Notes: a model not told the origin generated them from the sequence alone. 54,706 nucleotides of DNA from a virus (IMGVR_UViG_3300011269_000005:1-54706), one strand, 5' to 3'. Positions 9,287 through 54,706 are shown, numbered from the stretch's first letter. Program-made: numbers and translations.

Positions 9287-10365
9287 CGCATCTCCATCAG
9301 CGCGGTCGGCCATGCTCGCTTAGACTCCTCATCGAAGCGCTGTAGACCGTGGTAATTGTGATTGTGCAGGTGATCTTCCTGTCGCCGGCCCGACCAGGCA
9401 ATATTCATCTTGCTGATGATATCGACTGTGCTGGTGGGATCGGCCTGAAACATTCTGGCCACCCATGAGACTTCAGGCGATACAACGACGGGCACATTTG
9501 CAATCACGAAATCGGCGCTAACGATGTTGAAAGTCTCGCTGAAGGAGACCTGCATTCCAAGGTCCATCAGCCGGACTAAGGACATGAATTCGCTACGGTC
9601 CAGCCAGGGATGACCGACGAGCGTGTGCGGCGGTTTTACGTTCGCGAATAATGCGCGCAGATTCTTCAGTACCTGGGCTCCGTTCATCTCGATTCGATCC
9701 GAATTGATGTGGAATCGGATCGTGAAGCCCCGTGCGTTCGCCCAATCGATTGCGGCACAGGCCTGAGTGAGTTGGTTCTTCATAGGCCGGATCGCCCCGA
9801 AGCATCCAATGTCCACTACATCATCCGCCGGCAATCCCTTACGCGGTTCCAGCGGCGCGAGCGGGTAATAGTTCGGCGTGTAGGGGATATGAACACCAAA
9901 GATCCGTCGAAAATCGGTTTGTGCCCGCAAGGAATTAGCCGATACCGTGACATGGGCCAATTTCGAGTACGCGAATAGCCATTCCATCGCATTTCCCTCG
10001 TTCGCAAGGAAGGGCAATTCACTGTGCATGCGGACATTCCATCGGATATCAGGGTGCAATCGAGTCAGTAGGGCTAGCTTGGCCGGTCGGACCCATAGGG
10101 CCTCCAAGATAGCGTGTGTCGGTCTGGATGCCGTAACGGCGCGGTCTATCTCGTTGTCATCCTGTATACGCTCGAATGCCGCCTCGATGCCGAGGCTCTG
10201 GAGCATATCGGTAACGTAGTTGACCGAATTTCGCAGCCCGGTCCAATTGGTATTAGGCCAGCCTCGCGGCTGCGGGTGTGGTGGATGCGGAGGATGAGGG
10301 TGGTGGTGCGGGTCGTAGTAATCGCCACGTTTCTTGAGCAGAAACAGAACCTTAACAGGCTTCAA
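9283..10365 (-). CDS. GT-B (GT4-like) glycosyltransferase
   Basis: IGCFGAIRPMKNQL, DLGMQVSFSETFNIVSADF...VPVVVS (E-x7 motif region). Confidence 0.8.
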   Translation of the reverse strand: MKPVKVLFLLKKRGDYYDPHHHPHPPHPPHPQPRGWPNTNWTGLRNSVNYVTDMLQSLGIEAAFERIQDDNEIDRAVTASRPTHAILEALWVRPAKLALLTRLHPDIRWNVRMHSELPFLANEGNAMEWLFAYSKLAHVTVSANSLRAQTDFRRIFGVHIPYTPNYYPLAPLEPRKGLPADDVVDIGCFGAIRPMKNQLTQACAAIDWANARGFTIRFHINSDRIEMNGAQVLKNLRALFANVKPPHTLVGHPWLDRSEFMSLVRLMDLGMQVSFSETFNIVSADFVIANVPVVVSPEVSWVARMFQADPTSTVDIISKMNIAWSGRRQEDHLHNHNYHGLQRFDEESKRAWPTALMEMR

Positions 10366-37925: not shown

Positions 37926-39124
37926 CCAAGTTCTAATCCTATCTTCGTTGGCATCGATGTATTCGAGTAGAAGCTTTCGCAGAATGGTCGCGCGCTACTG
38001 ATCAGCGCGCACTGATTACCGAGGGTCGTCACGCCGCCAGGGCCAACGGTCAGGTCGGTGCCCAGCCGCACCGCCGTCCCATCACTCACCTGAAAGCTCA
38101 CAAGCGCTTGTTCCGTGATCGTGCCGAAGTTGTGCGGGACATTCGCGCTATATTCATCGCGGTTGCCCTGCGTCGCGGTCGAGACATACTTGGTCGAATC
38201 TAAGGGAACATTGCTTACTGCCTGCCAATGATGCGTCACGCCCGTTACCGCATACTGCAATGGCGTCGAATCGCCCGAAGGCGAGGTATACGCACTGCGC
38301 TGCGGACCCACGAACGCAGCGATTCCGTTCGTTCCTGGATTGATGACCCAAGTCAGACCGAAATCCTCTACGATACTATCGTCAAATTCGGCATCGTAGG
38401 CGATCTGATCGATGAGAAGGCTATTATTGTTGGCGTTAGTCGCGCAATTGTTACACCCAAAGGAGTCTATCCTGAGACCGTTTGATTTATAGACATTGAT
38501 CGTTATGCTGCCCTGTGCCCAAGCGGTCTGCGAATTCACTCCCACCGTGGTGATGGTCTCGAACAAAAACCAGTTAGTAAGGCCGCTGCCGAAGGTCAAC
38601 TTAAAGGCGCCGCTGTTGCCGAGATTGGTATTGGCAGAATTCTTAAGCTGTAATTTGCCACTGGATTGAAGAACTAAGTAGGTTTGATCGGTTCCGCGCG
38701 CCCCCTGTGGGTTGCTGCTATCACACCAGAGGAATATGGCCGGGCTGCCGGCCGGCGCGACCTCGGCTCGGAACCACGCATATGTAATTAACGTCTGCGC
38801 GGGATTGCCGAGCTGACTAGCCCTCGTAGCGACGGTCGGCCCTGGATTCTCGCCGCTATGACCGTTCGGAACAATCTTGAGATAGGAGCCAGTCACATTG
38901 CTGCCTGGGAGTGTCCAAGGTACCGTCTGGCCGGACACGATGCTGGATGTGGAAGGATCGATTAGGACGTAAGGAGCAATAGCTGGGACGGTACTCTGCG
39001 TACCGTACTCGTCCCACGTCTCGAGAAAGGTGAAGGATGCACCAGCCGGAAGTGCCCATGCGCTCCAACACCAGAGCAGTGCGCCAATAATTACGCCCAC
39101 GGCGACGATTGAACGTAATCGCAT
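37919..39124 (-). CDS. Signal-peptide-bearing lectin/LamG-like beta protein
   Basis: [24 protein letters not shown] leader, LVLQSSGKLQL, W.L.E, beta-rich. Confidence 0.7.
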   Translation of the reverse strand: MRLRSIVAVGVIIGALLWCWSAWALPAGASFTFLETWDEYGTQSTVPAIAPYVLIDPSTSSIVSGQTVPWTLPGSNVTGSYLKIVPNGHSGENPGPTVATRASQLGNPAQTLITYAWFRAEVAPAGSPAIFLWCDSSNPQGARGTDQTYLVLQSSGKLQLKNSANTNLGNSGAFKLTFGSGLTNWFLFETITTVGVNSQTAWAQGSITINVYKSNGLRIDSFGCNNCATNANNNSLLIDQIAYDAEFDDSIVEDFGLTWVINPGTNGIAAFVGPQRSAYTSPSGDSTPLQYAVTGVTHHWQAVSNVPLDSTKYVSTATQGNRDEYSANVPHNFGTITEQALVSFQVSDGTAVRLGTDLTVGPGGVTTLGNQCALISSARPFCESFYSNTSMPTKIGLELGW

Positions 39125-40638
39125 CAGTTTATCCGGTGCTCAAGCTTCACGGTCAAATCTAAGGCAGTGCAGGTGCCCGCCGTGATTTGCATACAGATAT
39201 AATCGCCCGCCGTCAGGGTCGCACTACTGACTGTGACATCAGCTGCACCCACAGCGGTGGGCGTGCTGGATACCAACGTTGTCGGTGAGCCACAGGCGTT
39301 CACCGTCGCCCCACAGTCCTGAATCTTGAGGGTCGGATTCCCCGCGCAGGTGAACAGACCTGCGGTGATAACGCCATTTTCAACGGTGCCCGCCTTGACC
39401 ACTTTGTGGCAGTCGAATAGCACCGTCGTGCCCGGTAGCGCGGTAAGATTCCCGGTATCGAACGTCATGAACCCCCGCGCCATATTCGCCGCAGAAACGT
39501 CGGAGCCGATGGTCAATGTCGCTACGGGGCAGTTGCCGTTCTGAGCACACGCCGCCGGTTGCGCAGGCACTGTCGCCTCCGATACGATATTCCAGTTTGT
39601 GCCGTCAAAACGCGCGTAGATTATTAAGATATTGCCGTTCGATGCGCCGATCTGAAGCTGCGCGCCCCCTACTGCCGCATAGTTAATCGTCCCCGTCGAT
39701 GCCGTGAAATTGTTAACAAGAACGGCACTCGCGCCTTGAGTCGCTTTATAGATAATCGTCTGGCCGACCGTACATGTAGCCGTGTCGAGATTTGGTGTGA
39801 CATTGCTCGCCGCGAGGGTTTGATCCCATTCATCTTGGGTATTGCCCGACGTGCAGGTTAGATCGGGCGTCGTACCCGATGCCGTATGCACTGATAGGAA
39901 TCCGCCGCCAGCCACACCCGTGGCCCCAGTTGGCCCTGTAGGTCCAGTTGGACCCGTAGGACCGGTCGGTCCCGTCGCCCCAGTAGCTCCGGTAACACCC
40001 GTCGCACCTGTAGGTCCAGACGGGCCTGTAGGTCCAGTAGGGCCTACGGCGCCGGTCGATCCCGCTCCGCCTGGTCCTGTAGCTCCCGTAACCCCGGTAG
40101 CTCCGGTCGCCCCCGTCGGGCCTGTAGCTCCCGTCGCGCCCACTCCGCTGGGTCCAGTCGGGCCAGTCGCCCCCGTGGGGCCTGATGGACCGGTGGCACC
40201 AGTCGCCCCCGCGCCTGAAGGTCCGGTTGCCCCGGTGACGCCAGTAGCTCCGGTAGGGCCGCTAGGTCCAGTAGGGCCGCTTGGACCACTCGGACCTGTG
40301 GAACCCGTTGCTCCGGTGGCTCCTGTCGGGCCGGTTGGACCAGACGATCCGATGGGACCGACGCCGCCACCTATATTGCAACTCCAGACGCCAGCCACCC
40401 GAATGGCTTCTACTCCTGTGCCGCCGCCTACGCATACCGGCGTCGCTTTGCAATCGTTACAAAAGACCTTCGTCGCATCGACCTGAGGAACTAGAGTACC
40501 GTTCGTCAAATCTACAAAGTTGACTGGCGCATAGGTGAGGGAGGTTCCGTTCAGTCGAATGGGCGGCGTGGCCAATGCCCACGCTGCGATCAATAGGAGC
40601 ACCAGCATGGGGAATAGAATTATCGGCATTCGTTTCAT
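39124..40638 (-). CDS. Collagen-like fibre protein with signal peptide and Cys-rich terminal domains
   Basis: [23 protein letters not shown] leader, about 150 aa of GPT/GAT repeats, follows the fibre adaptor. Confidence 0.85.
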
Positions 40639-40646
40639 GATTGTGC

Positions 40647-41195
40647 CTATGGTATCGGGAGCAACGAGATTTGCCCCCAGCCCGCCCATGTTCCTGGCGT
40701 TCCACCGACGACGCAGACAATCGCGCGCGGTCCCCCGAGCACTGGCGGCTGAATCCAGAACCAGTCCCCTATGGCGAACGTCCCACTAGTCGGCTTTCCC
40801 TGTGCGACCCCCTGAAACCCAGCGAGCATTTCCTGGATGATGAGGATAGCGTTATCGAGCGCTGCCTCGTGTGAACCTGCTGGGAATGGATCTTGCGGAT
40901 TATAGACAGCGGTCTGCGCCCGTGGCGTATGCCGCGTGATAAGTATCTGGCCGGCTGTTGCCGGAGCTACGCCAAAGGTAACCGTGCCACCTTCGCTATA
41001 AACGTTCAGCTTCGCGTCGAGGGCACCGCTCACGGTGTAATCGGTATTGAGGATTTTCGTCGTCACTACTCCGAGGGAATCCGTGAACTGAACGATCAGG
41101 TCAGGGATCGCCCTGAAATAGAAAGGATAGGGGAAGGCCGTGGCGATCCCGTCCGTCAAGTAGATTATGGTGAGAGTCTCGTCTTCGACTGCCAT
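40647..41195 (-). CDS. T7 gp17-type tail fibre adaptor (N-terminal domain only, plus a short tail motif)
   Basis: [40 protein letters not shown]...I.QE. Confidence 0.85.
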
Positions 41196-41201
41196 GAGCT
41201 G

Positions 41202-42737
41202 CTAGCCCTCCCTATCAAATGGCGAGAAATTCATATCCGCGAACTTTGGTCGATTCATGTAGGTTTCCGGGTTAGCTCGCAGCACCGTCCTCGCCTCGCC
41301 CGCACCTAAGAGCATATATTGCGCAGCCTCTGCGACGTGAGAATCCATAGACTTCACGGCTTCATCGTGGTACCGCTCCTCGCCCACAACTTGCACTCGC
41401 TTGTAATGATAGCCACCAGCCAACGCCTTCCGAAGCTTCTGGCAATTCGGATGGACCATCATGCCGGGACTGCCATCGATTAGTTTGTTCAGGAAGTAGG
41501 CGAAAGTCTCACGACGCTTGATAGGATCGTTCGTGTGCGCCGGATGCGCGTCAATCCCGGCAGCGCGGAGCACGGTGAACGGCGTACTATCGTCGGTCTG
41601 CGCCCGCGCCTCGCCCGCTGGATCGCCCGTGATGGCAGCAAACGAACATCCCTGGTAACGCTCGCGCATTATCTGGGCTAGGAGGCCACCGAATTCGAGC
41701 GCCCCCATATCCTCCGTAACCACCTCCGAATGAATCCGCCACGCACCCATTGCTGTCCGTTGACCAAAAGTTGCTGCGGGAGTTCGTCCAAAGTCAATTC
41801 CAACGTATAGCGGAATGCCCCGGATAAGGGGGAACTCTTTGCAGTGAACTGAATCCTTATACTCCGGATAAACCGGTTTGCCTTCCTGGACAAAGCCGTA
41901 GTCTCCGTCGACATAGACCTTGATCCAGTCATCCGACTTGCCGGCCATAAGGCGCTCATAGTAACCGGGAGGTAGATTTTTGATGTTCTCAGCGGCGGTC
42001 GACCGTCCGCTAGGCTGGGCAAAGAATTCTTGGAGCTTTTGCCGATCTGTCTGAAGCGTTCCGAGTTCCCGGAGCCGCTGGGCGATTTCCTCATTGCGCA
42101 TCACCATCTCCGGGTCTGGGAAATCCGCCATCTTCGCCCACCAGTGATCGGTGTCGGGCGAGTTGGTATCCATGACGATTTGGGGCATCGCGCAGGTATG
42201 GGTAACGTTCCCTTCTCCATCGCGGATGGTGCGCGGGAAACGACCGACCCGGCCGGTGAGTCCGTCGAGGATCGCCTTGGGCAATTCGCGCGCCTCGTTG
42301 ATCCAGGCATCGCTGAGGTCCATCGAAAGCAGTTTGCGGATATCGTCGGGCGTATCGAGCGCGAGGAAGATGATTTCCCAATCGACCTTCGGATTATCGG
42401 CTGTAATGTGGTGTGTCGGCGGTCCTTTATCACGCCAGTTACCAACCGTCGGCGGCACCCAGACATGCCAAGTCTTGATGGTCGTGGTCGCAAGTTCAGG
42501 GTAGGAGTTACGCACGATGGCTGTGCGGCGGCGTATCACGCCATCTGGTCCTGACTTCTGGCGCGTGAAATTATATAGCAGCTTTGCGATGCATGCCGTC
42601 GATTTTCCACTGCCGAAAGGTCCTCTGACGCCGCAGATAAGCGCGTTGCTGACAACAAACTGTTCCGCTACCGGCCCCGGCGGAAACCAATCGAACTTGA
42701 GCAAGGGCGGTGGCGGGATTCCGATCCGAGTTTTCAT
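41202..42737 (-). CDS. terL: Terminase large subunit
   Basis: GPFGSGKS, RNSYPEL, WINEAREL, DTNSPD..HW, AENIKNLPPGYY, GIDFGRTPAA, SHVAEA.QY. Confidence 0.93.
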   Translation of the reverse strand: MKTRIGIPPPPLLKFDWFPPGPVAEQFVVSNALICGVRGPFGSGKSTACIAKLLYNFTRQKSGPDGVIRRRTAIVRNSYPELATTTIKTWHVWVPPTVGNWRDKGPPTHHITADNPKVDWEIIFLALDTPDDIRKLLSMDLSDAWINEARELPKAILDGLTGRVGRFPRTIRDGEGNVTHTCAMPQIVMDTNSPDTDHWWAKMADFPDPEMVMRNEEIAQRLRELGTLQTDRQKLQEFFAQPSGRSTAAENIKNLPPGYYERLMAGKSDDWIKVYVDGDYGFVQEGKPVYPEYKDSVHCKEFPLIRGIPLYVGIDFGRTPAATFGQRTAMGAWRIHSEVVTEDMGALEFGGLLAQIMRERYQGCSFAAITGDPAGEARAQTDDSTPFTVLRAAGIDAHPAHTNDPIKRRETFAYFLNKLIDGSPGMMVHPNCQKLRKALAGGYHYKRVQVVGEERYHDEAVKSMDSHVAEAAQYMLLGAGEARTVLRANPETYMNRPKFADMNFSPFDREG

Positions 42738-46302: not shown

Positions 46303-47807
46303 TAGTGGGGCATCGCCTCCGGATGGGCCTTCATGTAGGCCGCTATTTTCCGCGCATCATCGTCGGTGATAGCAGGTGTTGGTCCGGGGGCTAGTGGCGG
46401 CCTAGCGGCAGGCGTCCCGCCGCGCGACGGTCTCGGGTTCGCCTTGACGGCATCCTCCATCGCTTTCTGATAAAAACTCGGAGCTTCCGCCGGATGCCCG
46501 TAAATCGCGGCTTCGTAAGCCATCGTCGCCTGCTGCCGGGCGCGCGCGAATGCTCCAGGCTGGCGCATCTCCATAATGCGATCTTGCCGGGTCTCGGGAT
46601 AATAATTCGAGTCGATGGCAGCGCGTGCGCGGATATTCGCTTGCCCCGCGGGCGTCTTGATGCCTGTGAGATGCTGATGTAGTTCGAGATTCAATTCGCT
46701 GGCACTGCGACCATCAAGTTGCCGAGTCGCCCCCGCAAGCCCTATATCGCGTTGAATCCCGTTGATCTCATCCTCGGAACTGGCACTCGCTATCCGTTGA
46801 TGCCAGCCGTCGAGCACGTCCGGCGCGGTAGCGACCGTATAGTCATAGCCTGTGAAGCCACGAAAATCCTTATCATCGATCACGCGATGGGCAGCATCGT
46901 TGTTGAGCCGATCCATGTCGGGCTGCCCATTCTGCTTGATGTAGTTCTGCTGATATTGAATCGCAGCCATCCGCGCCGCGCCCGCGTTCGCTTCCATCGC
47001 ACGCACTGGCGCACCTATCGCGGTGGTCTGCGCTGATAACAATGACGATTCCTGCTGAGGCGTGAACTTACCGGGGTTGGCCTTGATGAAGTCTTGGAGC
47101 AGTGTGGGATGCGCCGCATCGGGACTGCGCGCAAGTGCCTGCGCACGCTCGAGAGTGGCCTGATCCTCGAATTGTTGCTTGTAGAATGCGGCCGCCTGGG
47201 GATTCTTCGGCCACATCTGATCGACCATTCCCGCATATTTCGTGCGTGCTGCCACTGATGCGGGGCCTTCGGTGATCGAACCATCCTGCGCTATTCCGAA
47301 ATCACCGCCAGCGGCACCCGCCAGTTTTGTGCCGAGCGCTTTTAGTTGGGTATCCTGTTCTCGCGCAGTCTGTGCCGTGCCCGCCATGAGCGCATCGCGA
47401 TAGATAGATCCCTGAATCGCGGGCAAGCGCTGTTGTAAATAACCGGAGATGTGAGCATTGGCCGGATCTCCGATCATCTTCTGGGAGATTTCATTACCCT
47501 GCTGCTGGACGGTCGAAGCCCATTGGTCACCGGGAAGCTGTTTCGCATCGGCGTAGACCTTGGCGATCTGGTCTTTGTACCGTTCTTCGGCCGCATCAGC
47601 ATCGAGTATATTTTTGTGGCGTGCCTGTACCGCTAGGATGTCGCCTATCCGATTTAACGATTCCCCTGCTCTGACAGCACCGCGCAATCCCTCCGCAATT
47701 GGATTAACAATCTCTGGTACATTGAGCAGAGGAGGTCGTGGCCGATTCGGGATCGTCGGCGTTGGAACTGTCTCGCCAATCTGCGGTATTTGCGCGAAGC
47801 CCCCCAT
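46302..47807 (-). CDS. Internal virion protein (gp15-like)
   Basis: Helical Ala/Gln-rich sequence and position. Confidence 0.65.
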   Translation of the reverse strand: MGGFAQIPQIGETVPTPTIPNRPRPPLLNVPEIVNPIAEGLRGAVRAGESLNRIGDILAVQARHKNILDADAAEERYKDQIAKVYADAKQLPGDQWASTVQQQGNEISQKMIGDPANAHISGYLQQRLPAIQGSIYRDALMAGTAQTAREQDTQLKALGTKLAGAAGGDFGIAQDGSITEGPASVAARTKYAGMVDQMWPKNPQAAAFYKQQFEDQATLERAQALARSPDAAHPTLLQDFIKANPGKFTPQQESSLLSAQTTAIGAPVRAMEANAGAARMAAIQYQQNYIKQNGQPDMDRLNNDAAHRVIDDKDFRGFTGYDYTVATAPDVLDGWHQRIASASSEDEINGIQRDIGLAGATRQLDGRSASELNLELHQHLTGIKTPAGQANIRARAAIDSNYYPETRQDRIMEMRQPGAFARARQQATMAYEAAIYGHPAEAPSFYQKAMEDAVKANPRPSRGGTPAARPPLAPGPTPAITDDDARKIAAYMKAHPEAMPH

Positions 47808-48290
47808 CTATGGCCCCTTCTTCCCCGGCACATATCCACCATAGCCGCCTGAGACCCCGGTGAGCAGCGATGTCCCAATGCCGCCATAGAGCGCGTCTTC
47901 TGCATTGGAACGATAAATACGACTTTGATATCTCTCCACCGCTGCCGCATCAAATGCCTGATGGCGTTCGAGTTCTCCACCGTACCAGATATTGAGAGCG
48001 TCCATGCGGGCATTCGTAGCGCTCTGCTTCTCAACGGTCTGCACGCTGCCGCCAGTTCCGATGTTGGCCTGTCCAAAGGCTGCCGCCTGTTCGCCGAGCG
48101 CCGCCGCCGATCTACGTTGCGACTGCGCCATATTCGCTGCCGCCGTATTGCTTTCGGACACGCCTTGCTGCGTCAGAACTGCGGCATTATAGTCCGCCGC
48201 TTTGGCCTGAGCTGAGAACTGATTGCTCCTCTGGATAGCCCCGAACACACCAGCGGTGGTTCCTACAATGGCCATCGTCACCGGGTCCAT
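47808..48290 (-). CDS. Internal virion protein (gp14-like)
   Basis: MDPVT..., G.Q.AAFG..NI..GGS, Gly-rich C-terminus. Confidence 0.75.
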   Translation of the reverse strand: MDPVTMAIVGTTAGVFGAIQRSNQFSAQAKAADYNAAVLTQQGVSESNTAAANMAQSQRRSAAALGEQAAAFGQANIGTGGSVQTVEKQSATNARMDALNIWYGGELERHQAFDAAAVERYQSRIYRSNAEDALYGGIGTSLLTGVSGGYGGYVPGKKGP

Positions 48291-48707
48291 TCAACTAATC
48301 CTCGAATAGAGCATGGCGTCGCCACCGTCGCCAAATTTCCGCATAATGCCTTCGGTCTCGAATCCTAGGATCTCAGTCACCCAGCGGTGGCCTCTCAGAT
48401 TGCCCATATATACGACTGTTTCGATTCGCCGTGCGTCGAATTGACGGAGCCACGCCCGCATCAATTTGCAGATCTGCAGGAAATATCGGCTCGCCAATTT
48501 ATCATCGGTAAATGCCCAGCAACGAAAATTGCCAGGATTCTGCTCACACACACCCATACAGGCCACTACGCCTTCATCTACGATGCCCGCGAAGCCGTTG
48601 ATCGCCAGAGTCTCGACGTAATCCGCACGCTCTAGCAACGGCTCGACGGTAACCCCGCGTTTTAGCATCGCCTCCAGATGCCAGCGCTCTAGTTTCTCCA
48701 CTCGCAT
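48291..48707 (-). CDS. GNAT-fold virion assembly protein (gp13-like)
   Basis: RRIETVV, HRW...LGF..EG.MRKFG, located after the nozzle. Confidence 0.7.
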   Translation of the reverse strand: MRVEKLERWHLEAMLKRGVTVEPLLERADYVETLAINGFAGIVDEGVVACMGVCEQNPGNFRCWAFTDDKLASRYFLQICKLMRAWLRQFDARRIETVVYMGNLRGHRWVTEILGFETEGIMRKFGDGGDAMLYSRIS

Positions 48708-50950
48708 CAGTCTTCAGTCTCGAGATTCGGATACATTCCGACAATCGTCACAGGATAGGGTTCGTCGTTAACATAGGTCATCCGGCCCTCGACCTCAGAG
48801 CCGCCTGGCCAATTCATCGCGTAGGTCTCCTCAGGCCACATGCCATTATAGACCTTCAGCCGTTCATCCATCGGATCGTCGGGATCGCGAAATTCCAGCC
48901 CATCCATTACGGTCTCAGGCGGGTCGCTCAATTCGGCATCTGGGTCTTCGCGGCCTGCGCGGCCGCCAAGCGTATTCAGAAACCGGAAAGTTACATCCAC
49001 GATGCGCTTAACCTTGGCCTGCGCAGTCCCATTCGGCGCGCTCGCCTCGATCGGCATCGTGGTAAGACGGCAGCTCTGTGGCAGTCCCCACTGAACGATG
49101 CTCGCTACCCATTCCAGCGTAATCTGGCCGCCAGTCACGACGCGATCCGGATGTCTGGCCCCATCCGTCAAGACTTTTACGGTCTGGCCTTCGAGACGAT
49201 CCATGCCTGTAATCACTTTTGTCGGCGGACCATTGTAAGTGCCGCCGGAATCCGAATATAGCGACTGGGTTGCCAAATCGTCGCCGGTGAGAAAATGCGG
49301 CGCCATGAATTCGATATAACGTCGCGTAACTCCGTTGATCGTGCGATTCACCACCATCCACAATTCATCCTGCGATCCTGTGGGCGATGGGATGCAGGCA
49401 ATCGTCTCCAGCGCTCCGATCATCGGATGGCGGTGCCACGCAATTACCTGCTGTTCCTCGTTGAAGGTGAGACCCACCAAGTTGCCATCACGCATCCCCC
49501 CAGGGAATGGCTGCGGCGGCACTGGGGGCACAACCCCGCAAGATTTCCCGACAACACTTACATTCTTGATCAGGAAACTGTAGGCAAACCAAGCTGTTCT
49601 ATACCGCACCACTCCGAATTGGAGGATTTGCTGCGCTTCCGTATAGGCAAACTCATCTGGGATCGGATTGCAGGAATCCGGAGTGCCCAGATATCCCACC
49701 TGAAAGTCGCTCTGGTTTCCATAGAACGCTAATAACTGATAGCCCGATGGAGCATTCGGAACGGTGGGAGGCCAAATGCCCGTACCCGTACCAGGCGGGT
49801 CTACCGCTGCAAAGAGCAGGAGCGACACATCGTTACGCCAGTCTGGCGTTAATCCCGGTGCCTTGGGACTCCCGTCGTATCCTGTCGCAGTTTGGAATCC
49901 ATTAAAGAGATGCGCCGGATCCTCGTGAACGAAAGCGTAGACGAGTACCGTCCATATATTCAGCGTGGGGCGGGGCAATAGCCACGTATAACTGGGGATA
50001 TCCGATTCCGTATCTGTCGCGACCTTATAGAAGAGCCATGAAGCAGATGGCGGATTTACGGCGTGATTTTCCAAATATGAACCTGACAGAAGTGTCCAAC
50101 CGACAGGGATGACCTGGAAGGGATTCATTCCAGGAGCTGTGCCATTCGACCATATGTGAGCGATCAGGAGGTCGCCCTTCTGCACTCCTGTCGGTCTAGG
50201 CGGATTCAGTTGCGCCCCTGTGAAAAATGGAAACGCGGTATCATGGCTACTGCTACGAAATACAATGTCGCTATCCGCGGTTGCGGATGGCGTGAATATC
50301 GCATCATCAGTCAATAGGGGCGGCTGTGCCTCATTGACGAGGCTCGAAAACAGTGCAAACGTGCCGGAGCCCCAGAAATGAGGATTAGAATCGTCCGCAT
50401 TGGGCTCAGTCCACGTGTCGGAGACGATACCGGCCGTTACATACTCGTAGCCGCCTGCGCCTCCGCCTTGCGGGCCATTCTGCGCTGGCGTGAAAGGACT
50501 GGATAGTGGTGACAGAAGCTTATTGACGAATTCGATGAAATCGACGAGGACCAGCGCATTTTGACTTGGTGTGATCGGATCGCTGGTTTTCGTCTGGACC
50601 GAGTTGGCCGAGGACATAACGGCCGCCCCGAAGCTAATCGTGCCTCCACCGATGCTATAGAAGCTGTACTGATTGAAGACGTAAGCCTGGTTGCTGCCAT
50701 CCCAGGTGAATGTCCACGTCGGAGTACCGCCCTCGAATATATGCCAGAATGCTTGATAACCCGCGATTAGGCCATTTATCCTGTGCCACGTGCCATCTGG
50801 CGGATTGATCTGATGGCCGGTGCCGACGTTACCGGTTACGATAATTAGGTCTCCAGCATGCGTGGTGGTGGAACCGAAAGATGCACTGGACCCGCCGCCA
50901 GTGGACAGCCGGTTAAACGCCGCACGGAGAGTGGGATCGTAGATCGGCAT
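48707..50950 (-). CDS. Fusion of tandem beta-sandwich adhesin-like domains (aa 1-485) to the C-terminal part of tail tubular protein B (from about 49495)
   Basis: MRDGNLVGLTFNEEQQVIAWHRH...DELWMVVNRTING.TRRYIE...LEGQTV.VL.DG.HP...GTAQAK.KRI is the distal nozzle sequence. Confidence 0.8.
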   Translation of the reverse strand: MPIYDPTLRAAFNRLSTGGGSSASFGSTTTHAGDLIIVTGNVGTGHQINPPDGTWHRINGLIAGYQAFWHIFEGGTPTWTFTWDGSNQAYVFNQYSFYSIGGGTISFGAAVMSSANSVQTKTSDPITPSQNALVLVDFIEFVNKLLSPLSSPFTPAQNGPQGGGAGGYEYVTAGIVSDTWTEPNADDSNPHFWGSGTFALFSSLVNEAQPPLLTDDAIFTPSATADSDIVFRSSSHDTAFPFFTGAQLNPPRPTGVQKGDLLIAHIWSNGTAPGMNPFQVIPVGWTLLSGSYLENHAVNPPSASWLFYKVATDTESDIPSYTWLLPRPTLNIWTVLVYAFVHEDPAHLFNGFQTATGYDGSPKAPGLTPDWRNDVSLLLFAAVDPPGTGTGIWPPTVPNAPSGYQLLAFYGNQSDFQVGYLGTPDSCNPIPDEFAYTEAQQILQFGVVRYRTAWFAYSFLIKNVSVVGKSCGVVPPVPPQPFPGGMRDGNLVGLTFNEEQQVIAWHRHPMIGALETIACIPSPTGSQDELWMVVNRTINGVTRRYIEFMAPHFLTGDDLATQSLYSDSGGTYNGPPTKVITGMDRLEGQTVKVLTDGARHPDRVVTGGQITLEWVASIVQWGLPQSCRLTTMPIEASAPNGTAQAKVKRIVDVTFRFLNTLGGRAGREDPDAELSDPPETVMDGLEFRDPDDPMDERLKVYNGMWPEETYAMNWPGGSEVEGRMTYVNDEPYPVTIVGMYPNLETED

Positions 50951-50953
50951 AAG

Positions 50954-51364
50954 TTAGATTCTGAAGATGCCGCTTCCGTTCCAGACGACCGGGATATTCG
51001 CGCCACTCGTGGCGAGCGGGAAGCCCAAAATCGTGTCAAAGAGCATGAGTAGCGGGGACGTCACATCGGCGGGGCTGCCATCGCCTACCAATTTGTAGAG
51101 GGCTATGAATTTCGCTAGAGAGCCGCCTGGGACTGCGGGGAATGTCGCCGTTGCCGCGTTCAATGTCCCGGCTGTTGTCGTGATAGAACCGAGCGTCTGA
51201 TCTGTTCCGACCCGATTGGCCCCGAGGTCATTTAAGTGGACGTGCGCCGCCAAGTTTGGGGTATACGTATCCTTGAGCAGGCATACTTTGATGGTATCTA
51301 CTGCTGGGTCCAGTTGTGAATCCAGCACGTATTTCCGTCCGCTATCGAACCAGTTATTTGCCAT
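50954..51364 (-). CDS. Small tail/fibre-associated beta protein inserted within the split nozzle locus
   Basis: DTIKVCLL..TYTPN...H..L.D, SPLL...D, GANI.V.WN.SGIF.I motif family. Confidence 0.75.
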   Translation of the reverse strand: MANNWFDSGRKYVLDSQLDPAVDTIKVCLLKDTYTPNLAAHVHLNDLGANRVGTDQTLGSITTTAGTLNAATATFPAVPGGSLAKFIALYKLVGDGSPADVTSPLLMLFDTILGFPLATSGANIPVVWNGSGIFRI

Positions 51365-51365
51365 G

Positions 51366-53564
51366 CTATTTCAGGTTCCCATTGCGGATCATCCAGATTA
51401 CTGCGTCCGGTTCCTGCTGGAATGCGAGCGTCAGGGGACCATTTTTCTCAAAGATATGGTTGGCGAGCGCCGCCAAATCCTCGCTCTGATATTGGTCGGT
51501 GAAAAACTGATACTTCATAATGCGCATCTTCTGACCGCTGGTTTGTGACCAGATGAGCGAATAGCCGATTAAGGTGGGTTTGATGGCGCGCGAGCCGTGG
51601 CGCATCTGTGCCTTACTCGCGATATTTGCCGGGCCGAGCGGTTGCGAAGGATTTGTCTCCTGAATGATATGCTCGCCGCTCGCAGTCCCGACTACGAGCA
51701 CACGACCCTCGACCAGCCACTGAATCGCGTCCTGCGTCGGTAGCGTTATGTTGATGGCCATGTCGGCGGTCACTAATCCGCCTGGGGTTAGTGCCGAGAA
51801 GTTCTCAAAGTCGGCAGATACCGAGAGAAATACCTGCCCGTGGCGCCCGAATACTAGCCGACCGCGAAAGAATGAGACCGTCTGAGGAAAGCCGTCACGA
51901 TTATTGAAGGCCCCGACCGCCCAGTTGGAGGTGGCGTTCGATGCGAATACGACGGCTTGCGGAAGCCGATTGATGGTTCCCGCCTGTGGCTGCTCGATCA
52001 CATCCGCGGTTGCCGTCCAGAGCCGATTATCGACCGTGCCGCCGGAGACATACGGCGTCCATAGCGTCCCATCTACATTGGGACCAGTACCGTCACCATC
52101 CGTATCGTCCTGATGCAACTGAAAAGTATTTCCCGATATGCCGGCCGCCCGATAGAACGTATCGTTCACCTCGACCATGCCAACGACATCCTTGATGAAT
52201 ACGAGATCGCCGTTGGCAAACACCGGGCTGGTAGAAAGCGTCACGACTGGCGGATTTGCGGCCGTGATGCCCGTGATCGTGGCGGCGACGCCCACAGGAT
52301 CTATGCCACGTGCGATTAGCTGAACGAAGCCGAACCCAGGGTCACGGTAAGCCCACCGTATACCCGCAGTATCGCCATTATCCCAGGCCTCGCCGCTGAT
52401 ATGCGTAGGCGGGATCGTGCCAGTGGTTCCCCCGTTCATAGCCTCGTAGGTAATCCCATTGAACCGTCGTCGCTTTCCCTTGGCGACTGCTTTCGTCGAT
52501 TCCCACGGCCTGATGGTCCGCACATTCTGCTCAGTGAGCTGAAAGAGTGCGCCCATGATGCCGGGATCGAAGATATCGGCCGAGGCTGTCAGCGTGATTC
52601 CATTGCCATCCTCGGCAGAGGCGAACACGATTGGATTGGTCCCTGGATTGGCATCGCCGAATGGCCCGCCAGTGAACTGTGACAGACGGTCTAATCTCCA
52701 ATTGGCTGTGCCGAAGTGCAGCAGTTTATAGACGGGAAACTTGGTGCTGCGGTGGGTGATATAGATAACGTCCGCGCTCGGCACATAATCGAGTTGCGCA
52801 AATCCGTTGGCGTCATATAGATCCGTGAAGGCGTAGGGTGTTGGAATTTCATAGACTACCGATGACGGTGACGAGGACGTACCGCTTCCGCTAAAGCCTC
52901 CTCCTCCGGCGGTCACTTGCTGAATACCCACGCCTGAGTAGATTATGGCCCCTGTCGCGAAGACCGTCAGCGGTGCCCATTGCGGCACGCCGAGATTTAC
53001 CCATTGAACGGGATTGGGATCGCCCGCATCAAAATCATAGGTGGTACGCCCGACAGCGGTTTGCCAGATTGGCGGCAGGCCGCTCTTTGAGGTTCCGGCA
53101 TGCCTGCAGCCCTGGATATTGCCATTGCTGTCGACGATGATGTCCCCAAGACTGCGCACGACGCCGGGTGCCCAATAAGTAAATCCGAGATTCGTCCAGG
53201 TCAGGGCGCCATCTATGGTCGTTCCGCCCACCGTGGGATTCCAATTCGGGCCTAGTACTGGGCCGATGGTCAGGCTGGTGACTGGCGCGTGATTCTGGTG
53301 GAACCGCAGATAGTGGTCGCCCCACTCCAACATGAAGGATTCGGTGACGTTGAAGACGAAGGGCATCAGGAACACAAGCCCAGAGTTCTTGGTTTCAGCT
53401 TCAAAGCGCGTGCCTGGGCGACGCCGCACCGGGCCTTGCACCATCGGGATGAAATTCTCGAGCCTGAAACAGCCGGAGCCGTACTGTTTGATATCGGTGC
53501 GGCTCTCGCAGGCGGGGGACAGCTCCCCGCTATTGAAGGCGACTAATCCGGGCGAGGCTTTCAT
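51366..53564 (-). CDS. Tail tubular protein B / nozzle (T7 gp12/Bbp13-like), N-terminal part
   Basis: FNSGELSP...R.D...Y...C..LENF.P..QGPVRRRPGT, P..VSFF..RL.F, SVSADFENF. It ends at FQQEPDAVIWMIRNGNLK. Confidence 0.88.
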   Translation of the reverse strand: MKASPGLVAFNSGELSPACESRTDIKQYGSGCFRLENFIPMVQGPVRRRPGTRFEAETKNSGLVFLMPFVFNVTESFMLEWGDHYLRFHQNHAPVTSLTIGPVLGPNWNPTVGGTTIDGALTWTNLGFTYWAPGVVRSLGDIIVDSNGNIQGCRHAGTSKSGLPPIWQTAVGRTTYDFDAGDPNPVQWVNLGVPQWAPLTVFATGAIIYSGVGIQQVTAGGGGFSGSGTSSSPSSVVYEIPTPYAFTDLYDANGFAQLDYVPSADVIYITHRSTKFPVYKLLHFGTANWRLDRLSQFTGGPFGDANPGTNPIVFASAEDGNGITLTASADIFDPGIMGALFQLTEQNVRTIRPWESTKAVAKGKRRRFNGITYEAMNGGTTGTIPPTHISGEAWDNGDTAGIRWAYRDPGFGFVQLIARGIDPVGVAATITGITAANPPVVTLSTSPVFANGDLVFIKDVVGMVEVNDTFYRAAGISGNTFQLHQDDTDGDGTGPNVDGTLWTPYVSGGTVDNRLWTATADVIEQPQAGTINRLPQAVVFASNATSNWAVGAFNNRDGFPQTVSFFRGRLVFGRHGQVFLSVSADFENFSALTPGGLVTADMAINITLPTQDAIQWLVEGRVLVVGTASGEHIIQETNPSQPLGPANIASKAQMRHGSRAIKPTLIGYSLIWSQTSGQKMRIMKYQFFTDQYQSEDLAALANHIFEKNGPLTLAFQQEPDAVIWMIRNGNLK

Positions 53565-53570
53565 GCAGGC

Positions 53571-54706
<1,136 letters not shown>

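Follow-up and report, generated by a model that had tools for sequence, protein, structure and literature searches.

Podovirus tail nozzles are hexamers whose β-propeller core closes the DNA channel, and the nozzle proteins of T7 (gp12), Burkholderia phage BcepC6B (gp12) and Carin-1 (gp44) are single polypeptides. In T7 gp12 the propeller is followed by the fibre dock, which lies on the outer surface, and then by the platform, and it is the C-terminal platform of the nozzle that binds the adaptor (PMC6702177). The first reports of two-protein nozzles date from 2026, and each concerns one phage. The nozzle of the CP2-like Xanthomonas phage PhiXacm4-11, which has 92% nucleotide identity to CP2, is described as six gp30:gp31 heterodimers that keep the canonical topology of platform, propeller, fibre dock and tip and have four extra β-sandwich domains that protrude radially (bioRxiv 10.64898/2026.02.16.706137). 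In the Pseudomonas phage A1002 (Kochitakasuvirus), a 398-residue nozzle-base protein, gp42, and a 620-residue nozzle-rope protein, gp39, complete each other's propeller and platform strands, with fibre dimers of gp40 (147 residues) and gp41 (171 residues) carried on the rope that forms the N-terminal part of gp39 (PMC13730344). A literature search gave no relevant two-protein nozzle precedent beyond these two. Here we describe a nozzle locus in the viral record IMGVR_UViG_3300011269_000005:1-54706, the whole 54,706-bp stretch of which is called the window below; the record is complete, with direct terminal repeats. Its nozzle gene is divided between two open reading frames (ORFs), ORF1 for the N chain and ORF3 for the C chain, with ORF2 between them and with a large N-terminal module on ORF3 (Table 1). 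We consider it probable, at roughly 0.8, that the product is a hexameric tail nozzle of the T7 gp12, BcepC6B gp12 and Carin-1 gp44 family that is built from two polypeptides, the second of which carries an exchangeable module.

By the measure of profile alignments, the two halves are homologous to the nozzle and exactly complementary. Against the PHROG family phrog_376 (tail protein, 712 positions) the best stretch of ORF1 covered positions 2-264 (E 3.5e-106), and ORF3 residues 487-747 covered positions 468-711 (E 3.5e-61). In a profile built from 43 unsplit nozzle homologues (A3, 736 positions), ORF1 occupied positions 1-488 (E 8e-160) and the C part of ORF3 positions 489-735 (E 1.7e-103), with neither gap nor overlap. 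The same continuity was seen in BcepC6B, where the match of ORF1 ends at 10118 and that of ORF3 starts at 10122, both within the single gene gp12. PDB chain 8CK1_A ('Tail Nozzle'), which is named Carin-1 gp44 in the S10 legend of PMC13730344, aligned over chain residues 305-503 with ORF1 residues 530-729 (E 6e-49), and over chain residues 502-586 and 668-822 with ORF3 residues 487-575 and 574-741, respectively (E 7e-25). The nozzle C part matched 9691 library proteins at E ≤ 0.001. A sequence-only reading of the window had proposed a nozzle gene split in two around an inserted cassette, and the phrog_376 and A3 matches bear this out, as does the alignment to intact gp12 homologues, in which the C-terminal segment is homologous to the nozzle.

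The two polypeptides meet within a single β-hairpin. ORF1 ends in ...AFQQEPDAVIWMIRNGNLK, also written ...FQQEPDAVIWMIRNGNLK and followed by the TAG stop at 51366-51368, and the sequence of ORF3 across the border of linker and nozzle is ...PQPFPGGMRDGNLVGLTFNEEQQVIAWHRH, that is ...PQPFPGG-M486-RDGNLVGLTFNEEQQVIAWHRH..., with Met 486 encoded at 49493-49495, 1871 nucleotides (nt) past the ORF1 stop. Between the nozzle halves lie a gene of 136 amino acids (aa) and 486 aa of unrelated sequence. Unsplit relatives in the family alignment have ..QQEPDSVVWxxR-xDGx-LIGxTY.. at this place, and IRNGNL of ORF1 and MRDGNL of ORF3 both map onto that hairpin, so that the cut sits in its turn. The overlap of the two chains at the turn is kept in the related locus L004, amounts to no more than GD in L005 and is absent in L010. 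The sequence-only reading had given the coordinates and sequences of the junction features correctly, and the duplicated xRxGNL motif that it pointed out is present at the protein level; as a DNA repeat it did not hold, since the two junction 18-mers are alike at 13 of 18 bases and were not called a repeat, and the repeat search shows no longer direct repeats around the cassette. The first DNA copy of the motif does exist, its position being corrected to 51372-51389.

The A3 profile aligns T7 gp12 only to position 446, which is T7 residue 473, and placing the cut in T7 gp12 is an extrapolation of about 42 positions beyond the aligned part, with the domain positions taken from the T7 paper, which assigns D478 to blade 6, C504 to blade 7 and C554 to blade 1 (PMC6702177). 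On this extrapolation the cut would lie near T7 residue 515, in the last propeller blades by the platform-side upper end and the fibre dock, and would leave to the C chain the strands that close the propeller, together with the fibre dock and the C-terminal platform. The sequence-only reading had placed the split at the tail tip, which is probably wrong on the same grounds. ORF1 itself carries two additional regions (Table 1). The tblastn matches in L005-L009 skip residues 96-235, and residues 93-238 are skipped in BcepC6B gp12; this extra domain is found in L010 and in the unsplit library representative P0012. The insert at residues 437-511 matched Pfam PF16190 (E 8.9e-5, 22.9 bits, under the 29.5-bit cut-off), and phrog_584 matches ORF1 residues 425-490.

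Combined, ORF1 and the C part of ORF3 have full-length homology with BcepC6B gp12, Carin-1 gp44 and T7 gp12, and they cover the whole nozzle fold but not as one polypeptide, whereas in the unsplit nozzles a single chain passes through the hairpin without a module. The place of the genes is the same as in the unsplit systems, followed by an acetyltransferase-like gene and internal virion protein genes. The PhiXacm4-11/CP2 system is like the window in that the protein family is the same and the nozzle is made from two adjacent gene products: CP2 ORF19 and ORF20 matched the A3 profile (E 2.7e-82 and 4.6e-99), and ORF1 aligns to both at 26-30% identity. The cut is at profile position ~300 in CP2 (ORF19 covers 7-309 and ORF20 292-732) instead of 488/489, ORF20 runs straight across the cut site of the window, and there is neither a gene between the halves nor a large module on the second chain. 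With A1002 and its genus-mate KPP25 the window shares the order of N chain, small virion proteins and C chain with an N-terminal extension; the KPP25 minus-strand genes encode 398, 171, 147 and 620 aa, in agreement with the published A1002 sizes. Comparison of KPP25 ORF005-ORF008 with ORF1, ORF2 and ORF3 by blastp and three profile searches gave no significant similarity (best E 0.011 in a five-protein database), so that the resemblance is one of design, and the two split designs probably arose independently. They also differ in that the A1002 extension is a rope of ~300 Å with 11 fibre dimers, whereas that of the window is modelled as globular β-sandwich domains, and in that the nozzle C part has about 150 aa in A1002 and 261 aa in the window.

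In the two-chain nozzle that we propose, ORF1 would supply the first two thirds of the fold, with the N-terminal platform strands, most of the β-propeller, the tip and some extra domains, and ORF3 the last third, which by the extrapolation described above comprises the final propeller strands, the fibre dock and C-terminal platform. As the cut falls in a hairpin turn, the two chains should co-fold by strand complementation. The 486-residue module, held on its proline-rich linker, would decorate the exterior of the nozzle in six copies per virion. ORF2 would have come with the module type of the window, and probably decorates or braces the module. The ORF1 stop is separated from ORF2 by 1 nt and the ORF2 stop from ORF3 by 3 nt, and gaps as small as these suggest that the three ORFs are translationally coupled and made in similar amounts. 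That the chains assemble together, where the module stands on the virion and what the module and ORF2 do are our inferences.

The ORF3 module is, from comparison of related loci, the fast-evolving and exchangeable part of the C chain. Within the clade of split nozzles the C-part anchors are 65-93% identical, and the sequence ahead of the anchor falls into at least four module types: 486-491 aa in the window and L004, 402 aa in L005, 373 aa in L010 and 401 aa in L053 and L055. The L010 and L053/L055 modules are 30% identical, and no other pair of types matches at E 1e-3. These alignments show a module exchanged on a conserved anchor. The L010 module gave sub-threshold matches to Sortilin-Vps10 and BNR and contains five motifs that we take to be Asp-box-like. 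Between ORF3 and P0002 and P0003, which have its own module type, the module is 63-65% identical and the anchor 92-93%, the change coming at about residue 490-500. A proline-rich stretch precedes the C part in P0001-P0003, P0017, P0075, L004 and L010, and in L005 there is only a short TTPTPAGD. The module type of the window is also found on other C-terminal domains, in P0004 (677 aa) and in P0005-P0007 and P0178 (376-427 aa). P0004 joins the full ORF3-type module and proline-rich linker to a different C-terminal domain of ~190 aa, with no nozzle C part, from which it follows that the module moves between anchors. P0017 has a remote relative of the module (23% identity) ahead of another nozzle C part.

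The 486 aa had been labelled 'adhesin-like' in the sequence-only reading, a label that is not established: the module matched no Pfam, PHROG or NCBIfam family, tblastn gave no match in the phage collection, and the ESM Atlas gave just viral clusters without names. The AlphaFold2 model of the module, from a 12-row alignment, contains two β-sandwich domains at about residues 7-140 and 230-342, in which the predicted local distance difference test (pLDDT) score of the blocks is ~70-86, with a low-confidence remainder. A Foldseek search of the PDB with the model gave nothing at E ≤ 0.001. Host-surface (glycan) binding or accessory adsorption is the most likely role of the module, on the basis of its position, rate of change and exchange.

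ORF2 is a homologue of the 'Tail wing arm, gp31' of PDB entry 9D93 (chain 9D93_Ra), which is the tail tip of mycobacteriophage Bxb1 (bioRxiv 10.64898/2025.12.12.693979). The ORF2 sequence alone matched this chain with E 2.2e-5, and a 19-row ORF2 profile matched with E 2.4e-13 over chain residues 5-105 of 106; ORF2 also matched phrog_644 (E 1.7e-22). Bxb1 gp31 has been located on the virion, and gp31 and gp33 (wing brush) are described as contacting gp30 (wing base) and no other tail protein directly (PMC12646305). Both are small proteins encoded among tail appendage genes, gp31 being a virion protein. They differ in that Bxb1 is a siphovirus with its wing on the tail spike through gp30, and in that ORF2 has about 30 additional conserved N-terminal residues. 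Homologues of ORF2 were found in mycobacteriophages and in Pseudomonas phages, including the Hollowayvirus PA8. ORF2 is present in L004 and absent from L005, L010, L053 and L055. In L012, an unrelated phage, a homologue 49% identical to ORF2 lies immediately upstream of P0007, whose similarity to the ORF3 module is limited to the first ~230 aa of that module. From these occurrences and absences, ORF2 tracks the module type and not the split itself, and the comparison of gene content shows it linked to that type.

Prediction of ORF2 by AlphaFold2 from the single sequence gave a mean pLDDT of 41, too low to use, and the complex prediction of ORF3 module residues 1-235 with ORF2 scored 0.02 against a mark of 0.32, which is evidence neither for nor against an interaction. 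The ORF2 homologue and P0007 pair of L012 (2988-7269) directly follows an 806-aa protein that has no nozzle match and a weak head-decoration hit. Assignment of ORF2 to the GP4 gp80 fibre-dimer family (PF23140), for which the ESM Atlas gave a feature score of 0.87, was rejected as unsupported by sequence: PF23140 had no match in the window at E ≤ 10, and none of the 19 members of the ORF2 alignment (A1) matched it. In two sequencing runs, X1 and X2, a divergent contig of low depth (about 3x) skips 82 nt inside ORF2 (window 51069-51152); it is probably from a relative with an indel or a different ORF2.

The position of the cut is conserved across relatives. In all seven IMG/VR loci that a search with ORF1 recovered, the N and C parts belong to different ORFs, the N part of L008 running off the contig end, and the same hairpin is cut in all nine of the related viral contigs found overall. 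Of 599 stretches picked up in a scan with an alignment of the C part, 582 were confirmed as relatives, and the best 80 were kept. Among these best 80, 69 loci were single ORFs, six were cut by contig ends, one (L128) was broken elsewhere and four were cut at profile positions 488-490; two of the four (L052 and L054) were contigs already seen, and L053 and L055 were new. In comparisons with L004, L005 and L010, the ratio of nonsynonymous to synonymous substitution rates (dN/dS) was 0.06-0.16 for ORF1, 0.02-0.16 for the C part of ORF3, 0.12 for ORF2 and 0.12 for the ORF3 module, figures that are rough because dS exceeds 1. Purifying selection acts on ORF1, ORF2, the ORF3 module and the ORF3 C part. 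A scan of 185,579 species genomes with ORF1 found no relative, and the locus as a whole had no nucleotide match in the phage collection. The window is contained at ≥98% of its sampled words in nine sequencing runs, all of soil metagenome DNA and available as contigs. Two of these runs, belonging to two studies, each contain a single Logan contig of 13,662 nt that extends over 47800-54600 with 3 differences, and these two runs may be the source samples of the window. The split nozzle is neither an assembly artefact nor a dead gene.

The evolutionary setting of the split was examined with a library set in which 150 representatives match the C part; 16 without a complete C part were dropped and 134 were kept. 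Most of these (109) are unsplit, 16 have a partial N part and are probably cut ORFs, two (P0105 and P0118) consist of the C part alone, and six (P0001, P0008, P0014, P0017, P0075 and P0116) have a non-nozzle N-terminus of at least 60 aa ahead of the C part. The one remaining, P0010 (1150 aa), is an unsplit nozzle with an in-frame insertion of ~308 aa, which has an NHL repeat match, at exactly the hairpin that is cut in the window. In a tree of the C part built with FastTree, the split clade of the window has a support of 0.995, P0010 is its sister (0.83), and the next outgroup (0.997) is P0012, which is unsplit, has 984 aa and already carries the ORF1 extra domains. Elsewhere in the tree P0014 and P0017 stand beside the unsplit P0013 (0.985), P0075 stands beside the unsplit P0141 (1.0) and P0116 is basal. 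The phrog_376 match begins at position 469 in P0014, P0017 and P0075 and at 468 in ORF3, and the coincidence of these starts on separate branches suggests repeated use of one site. In L128 (1690-3724), the locus broken elsewhere, one ORF corresponds to profile positions 2-106 and the next starts at 270, a break that may come from a frameshift or an error, or be a third type of split.

A broader reading, to which we give somewhat less than even odds, is that the last-blade hairpin is a general plug-in socket in which host-recognition modules have been placed repeatedly, either in frame, as in P0010, or by a cut of the gene, as on the three or four branches of the window clade, P0014/P0017, P0075 and P0116, where the chain that bears the module would complete the propeller. 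In addition to the fibres, the nozzle itself would then be a modular, exchangeable receptor-binding organ, and the Bxb1-type wing arm would move with modules between siphoviruses and podoviruses.

The conserved cut, the purifying selection on both halves, the exchangeable modules and the published two-protein nozzles lend good support to what the sequence-only reading had put forward as one possibility, a two-chain nozzle with extra domains. Several points weigh against this interpretation or narrow it. L005-L009 share coordinates and identities at the nozzle locus, and the nine related contigs therefore amount to about four lineages besides that of the window. An upstream N-chain gene is assumed for P0014, P0017, P0075 and P0116, for which the scans gave relatives of the module or nothing: no locus was found in the P0116 and P0075 scans, and in 37 of the 38 P0017 loci (7 viral and 31 metagenomic) the tblastn match was through the module only, and neither a nozzle gene nor an ORF2 gene lay close by. 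The module belongs to no recognisable family, and its model is just moderate (mean pLDDT 62); its best VIA-align matches, to a protease propeptide domain, a tumour necrosis factor (TNF)-like lectin and carbohydrate-binding modules, have Z 6.9, under the Z 7-8 usual for unrelated models. With no family, a moderate model and fold matches at background, receptor binding by the module is a guess. The window has other fibre genes besides, with a T7 gp17-like adaptor and collagen-like fibres, so the nozzle module may be dispensable for adsorption. A different assembly of the same proteins, in which ORF3 is a fibre or spike that uses the nozzle C part as an anchor and docks outside a nozzle made of ORF1 only, without completing its fold, would agree with the layout of ORF3 as a conserved anchor with a variable module, which is like that of a receptor-binding protein, and with the presence of the same module type on other C-terminal anchors (P0004-P0007). 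We judge it quite improbable, in that the cut falls inside a hairpin and not at a domain border, and the genome has no second C part, a search of the genome with ORF1 having given one match. Since ORF1 ends at profile position 488 and the C part is single-copy, an ORF1-only nozzle would be without its last propeller strands and its C-terminal platform.

The two-chain nozzle has also to be weighed against readings in which more than one product, or a single restored chain, comes from the locus, both of which the sequence-only reading had raised and for neither of which the analysis gave support. An internal start at Met 486 (ATG at 49495) would yield an additional, bare C part of 262 aa, and virions would then mix decorated and undecorated nozzle subunits. 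Met 486 is conserved in the subclade of the window (P0001-P0003 and L004), a GGGGGG run stands immediately 5' of the ATG, and P0105 and P0118 show that stand-alone C-part proteins occur in the library; yet there is no Met at this position in L005, L010, P0017 and P0075, the GGGGGG run touches the ATG without a spacer, which would be unusual for a ribosome-binding site, the starts of P0105 and P0118 may have been mis-called or their ORFs cut, and the promoter and terminator scan of the region was at chance (5 against 3.4 expected and 3 against 5.4 expected). An internal start is unlikely. A single chain restored by removal or skipping of the cassette, whether through DNA excision, an intron, an intein, a frameshift or translational bypass, is suggested by the short motif duplicated on either side and by the way in which ORF1, ORF2 and ORF3 abut, and is very improbable in view of the remaining evidence. 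The two 18-mers are mismatched, no longer direct repeat flanks the cassette, an Rfam search gave no family, intron or other, at E ≤ 0.1, read-through of the ORF1 stop adds just 3 codons before the next stop, and the 1.87 kb between the halves codes for protein under purifying selection. Relatives carry other cassettes at the same place without the duplicated motif, and among the contigs of four runs, which cannot reveal rare variants, no joint skips the cassette. That the gene is disrupted and non-functional, in a defective or mis-assembled genome, is an idea that draws on a single gene being the norm of the family (109 of 134 representatives with a complete C part; 69 of the best 80 loci) and is close to negligible in our estimation. 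The record is complete with its direct terminal repeats, dN/dS is at most 0.16 in both nozzle halves, and two-protein nozzles are reported as proven in infectious phages (PMC13730344; 10.64898/2026.02.16.706137). A chimeric assembly, which the sequence-only reading had allowed for, is contradicted by the contigs from an independent assembler that span the locus and by the identical cut in the nine related contigs.

Table 1. Coordinates of the split nozzle genes of the window and of their flanking features
Feature	Coordinates	Strand	Remarks
ORF1, nozzle N chain	51366..53564	-	732 aa, family profile positions 1-488
ORF1 extra domain, about residues 96-235	52860..53279	-	
ORF1 small β-barrel insert like E1_FCCH, residues 437-511	52032..52256	-	
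Junction motif, N-side copy IRNGNL	51372..51389	-	last strand and turn of the cut hairpin
ORF2, homologue of Bxb1 gp31 'tail wing arm'	50954..51364	-	136 aa
ORF3, nozzle C chain	48707..50950	-	747 aa: module, proline-rich linker, nozzle C part
ORF3 N-terminal module, residues 1-486	49493..50950	-	
Proline-rich linker VVPPVPPQPFPGG, ORF3 residues 473-485	49496..49534	-	border of module and nozzle C part
Junction motif, C-side copy MRDGNL	49478..49495	-	includes internal Met486
Nozzle C part, ORF3 residues 487-747	48710..49492	-	family profile positions 489-735
Gene 3' of nozzle C chain, phrog_4177	48291..48707	-	138 aa
Collagen-like, glycine-rich fibre gene directly upstream of ORF1	53571..54611	-	Pfam Collagen E 8e-11, Gly_rich_2 E 5.8e-9

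The genes around the split nozzle are those expected of the family, which places the nozzle gene between the adaptor gene and the internal virion protein genes. The tubular A (adaptor) gene, phrog_394, is at 1137-1769 and lies upstream of the nozzle across the record ends, with two collagen-like fibre genes between, and downstream of the nozzle are a gp14-like gene, a 501-aa gene and a transglycosylase-bearing gene of 1152 aa. The 138-aa gene follows the C chain in all related loci and is annotated as an acetyltransferase in related phages. It abuts the C-chain gene in the window, whereas L004, the closest relative, has about 700 more bases between the C-chain and acetyltransferase-like genes (L004:8036-8746). 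The two collagen-like, glycine-rich fibre genes that stand between the tubular A gene and the nozzle N chain are on the minus strand, one at 28-1140 and the other next to ORF1 (Table 1); the collagen-like gene of L010 is upstream of its tubular A-like gene instead.

Further observations concern the rest of the structural genes, all on the minus strand. The similarity of a 182-aa gene at 40647-41195 to long fibre and spike families (phrog_1640 and others) is confined to their N-terminal ~125 residues, and the gene overlaps the start of a 521-aa collagen-like fibre gene at 39124-40689. Judged from these partial matches, the tail fibre too may consist of two chains, one an adaptor and the other distal. 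At 1753-2190 an HNH endonuclease gene (phrog_826, E 1e-43) overlaps the start of tubular A, inside the structural module. The large terminase gene, at 41202-42737, has the internal virion protein genes upstream and the fibre genes downstream of it, a place that is unusual relative to BcepC6B.

The two-protein design of the nozzle was already known, and to the two reported cases the locus in the window adds a third, independent cut site in the fold, together with an in-frame intermediate, a second chain that bears a large exchangeable module, and a Bxb1-type wing-arm gene that accompanies one module type. The relatives form a natural series from an unsplit protein through an in-frame domain insertion to a split gene, and a single conserved anchor carries at least four different modules. 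The locus marks where the nozzle tolerates insertions and fragment complementation, and it is useful for annotation, since the labels that gene callers now put on these halves are 'hypothetical' or 'tail protein'. A mycobacteriophage 'wing arm' protein is also linked here to podovirus tails. The arrangement points to a route by which podoviruses could alter binding without changing their fibres, which is useful for understanding the evolution of host range.

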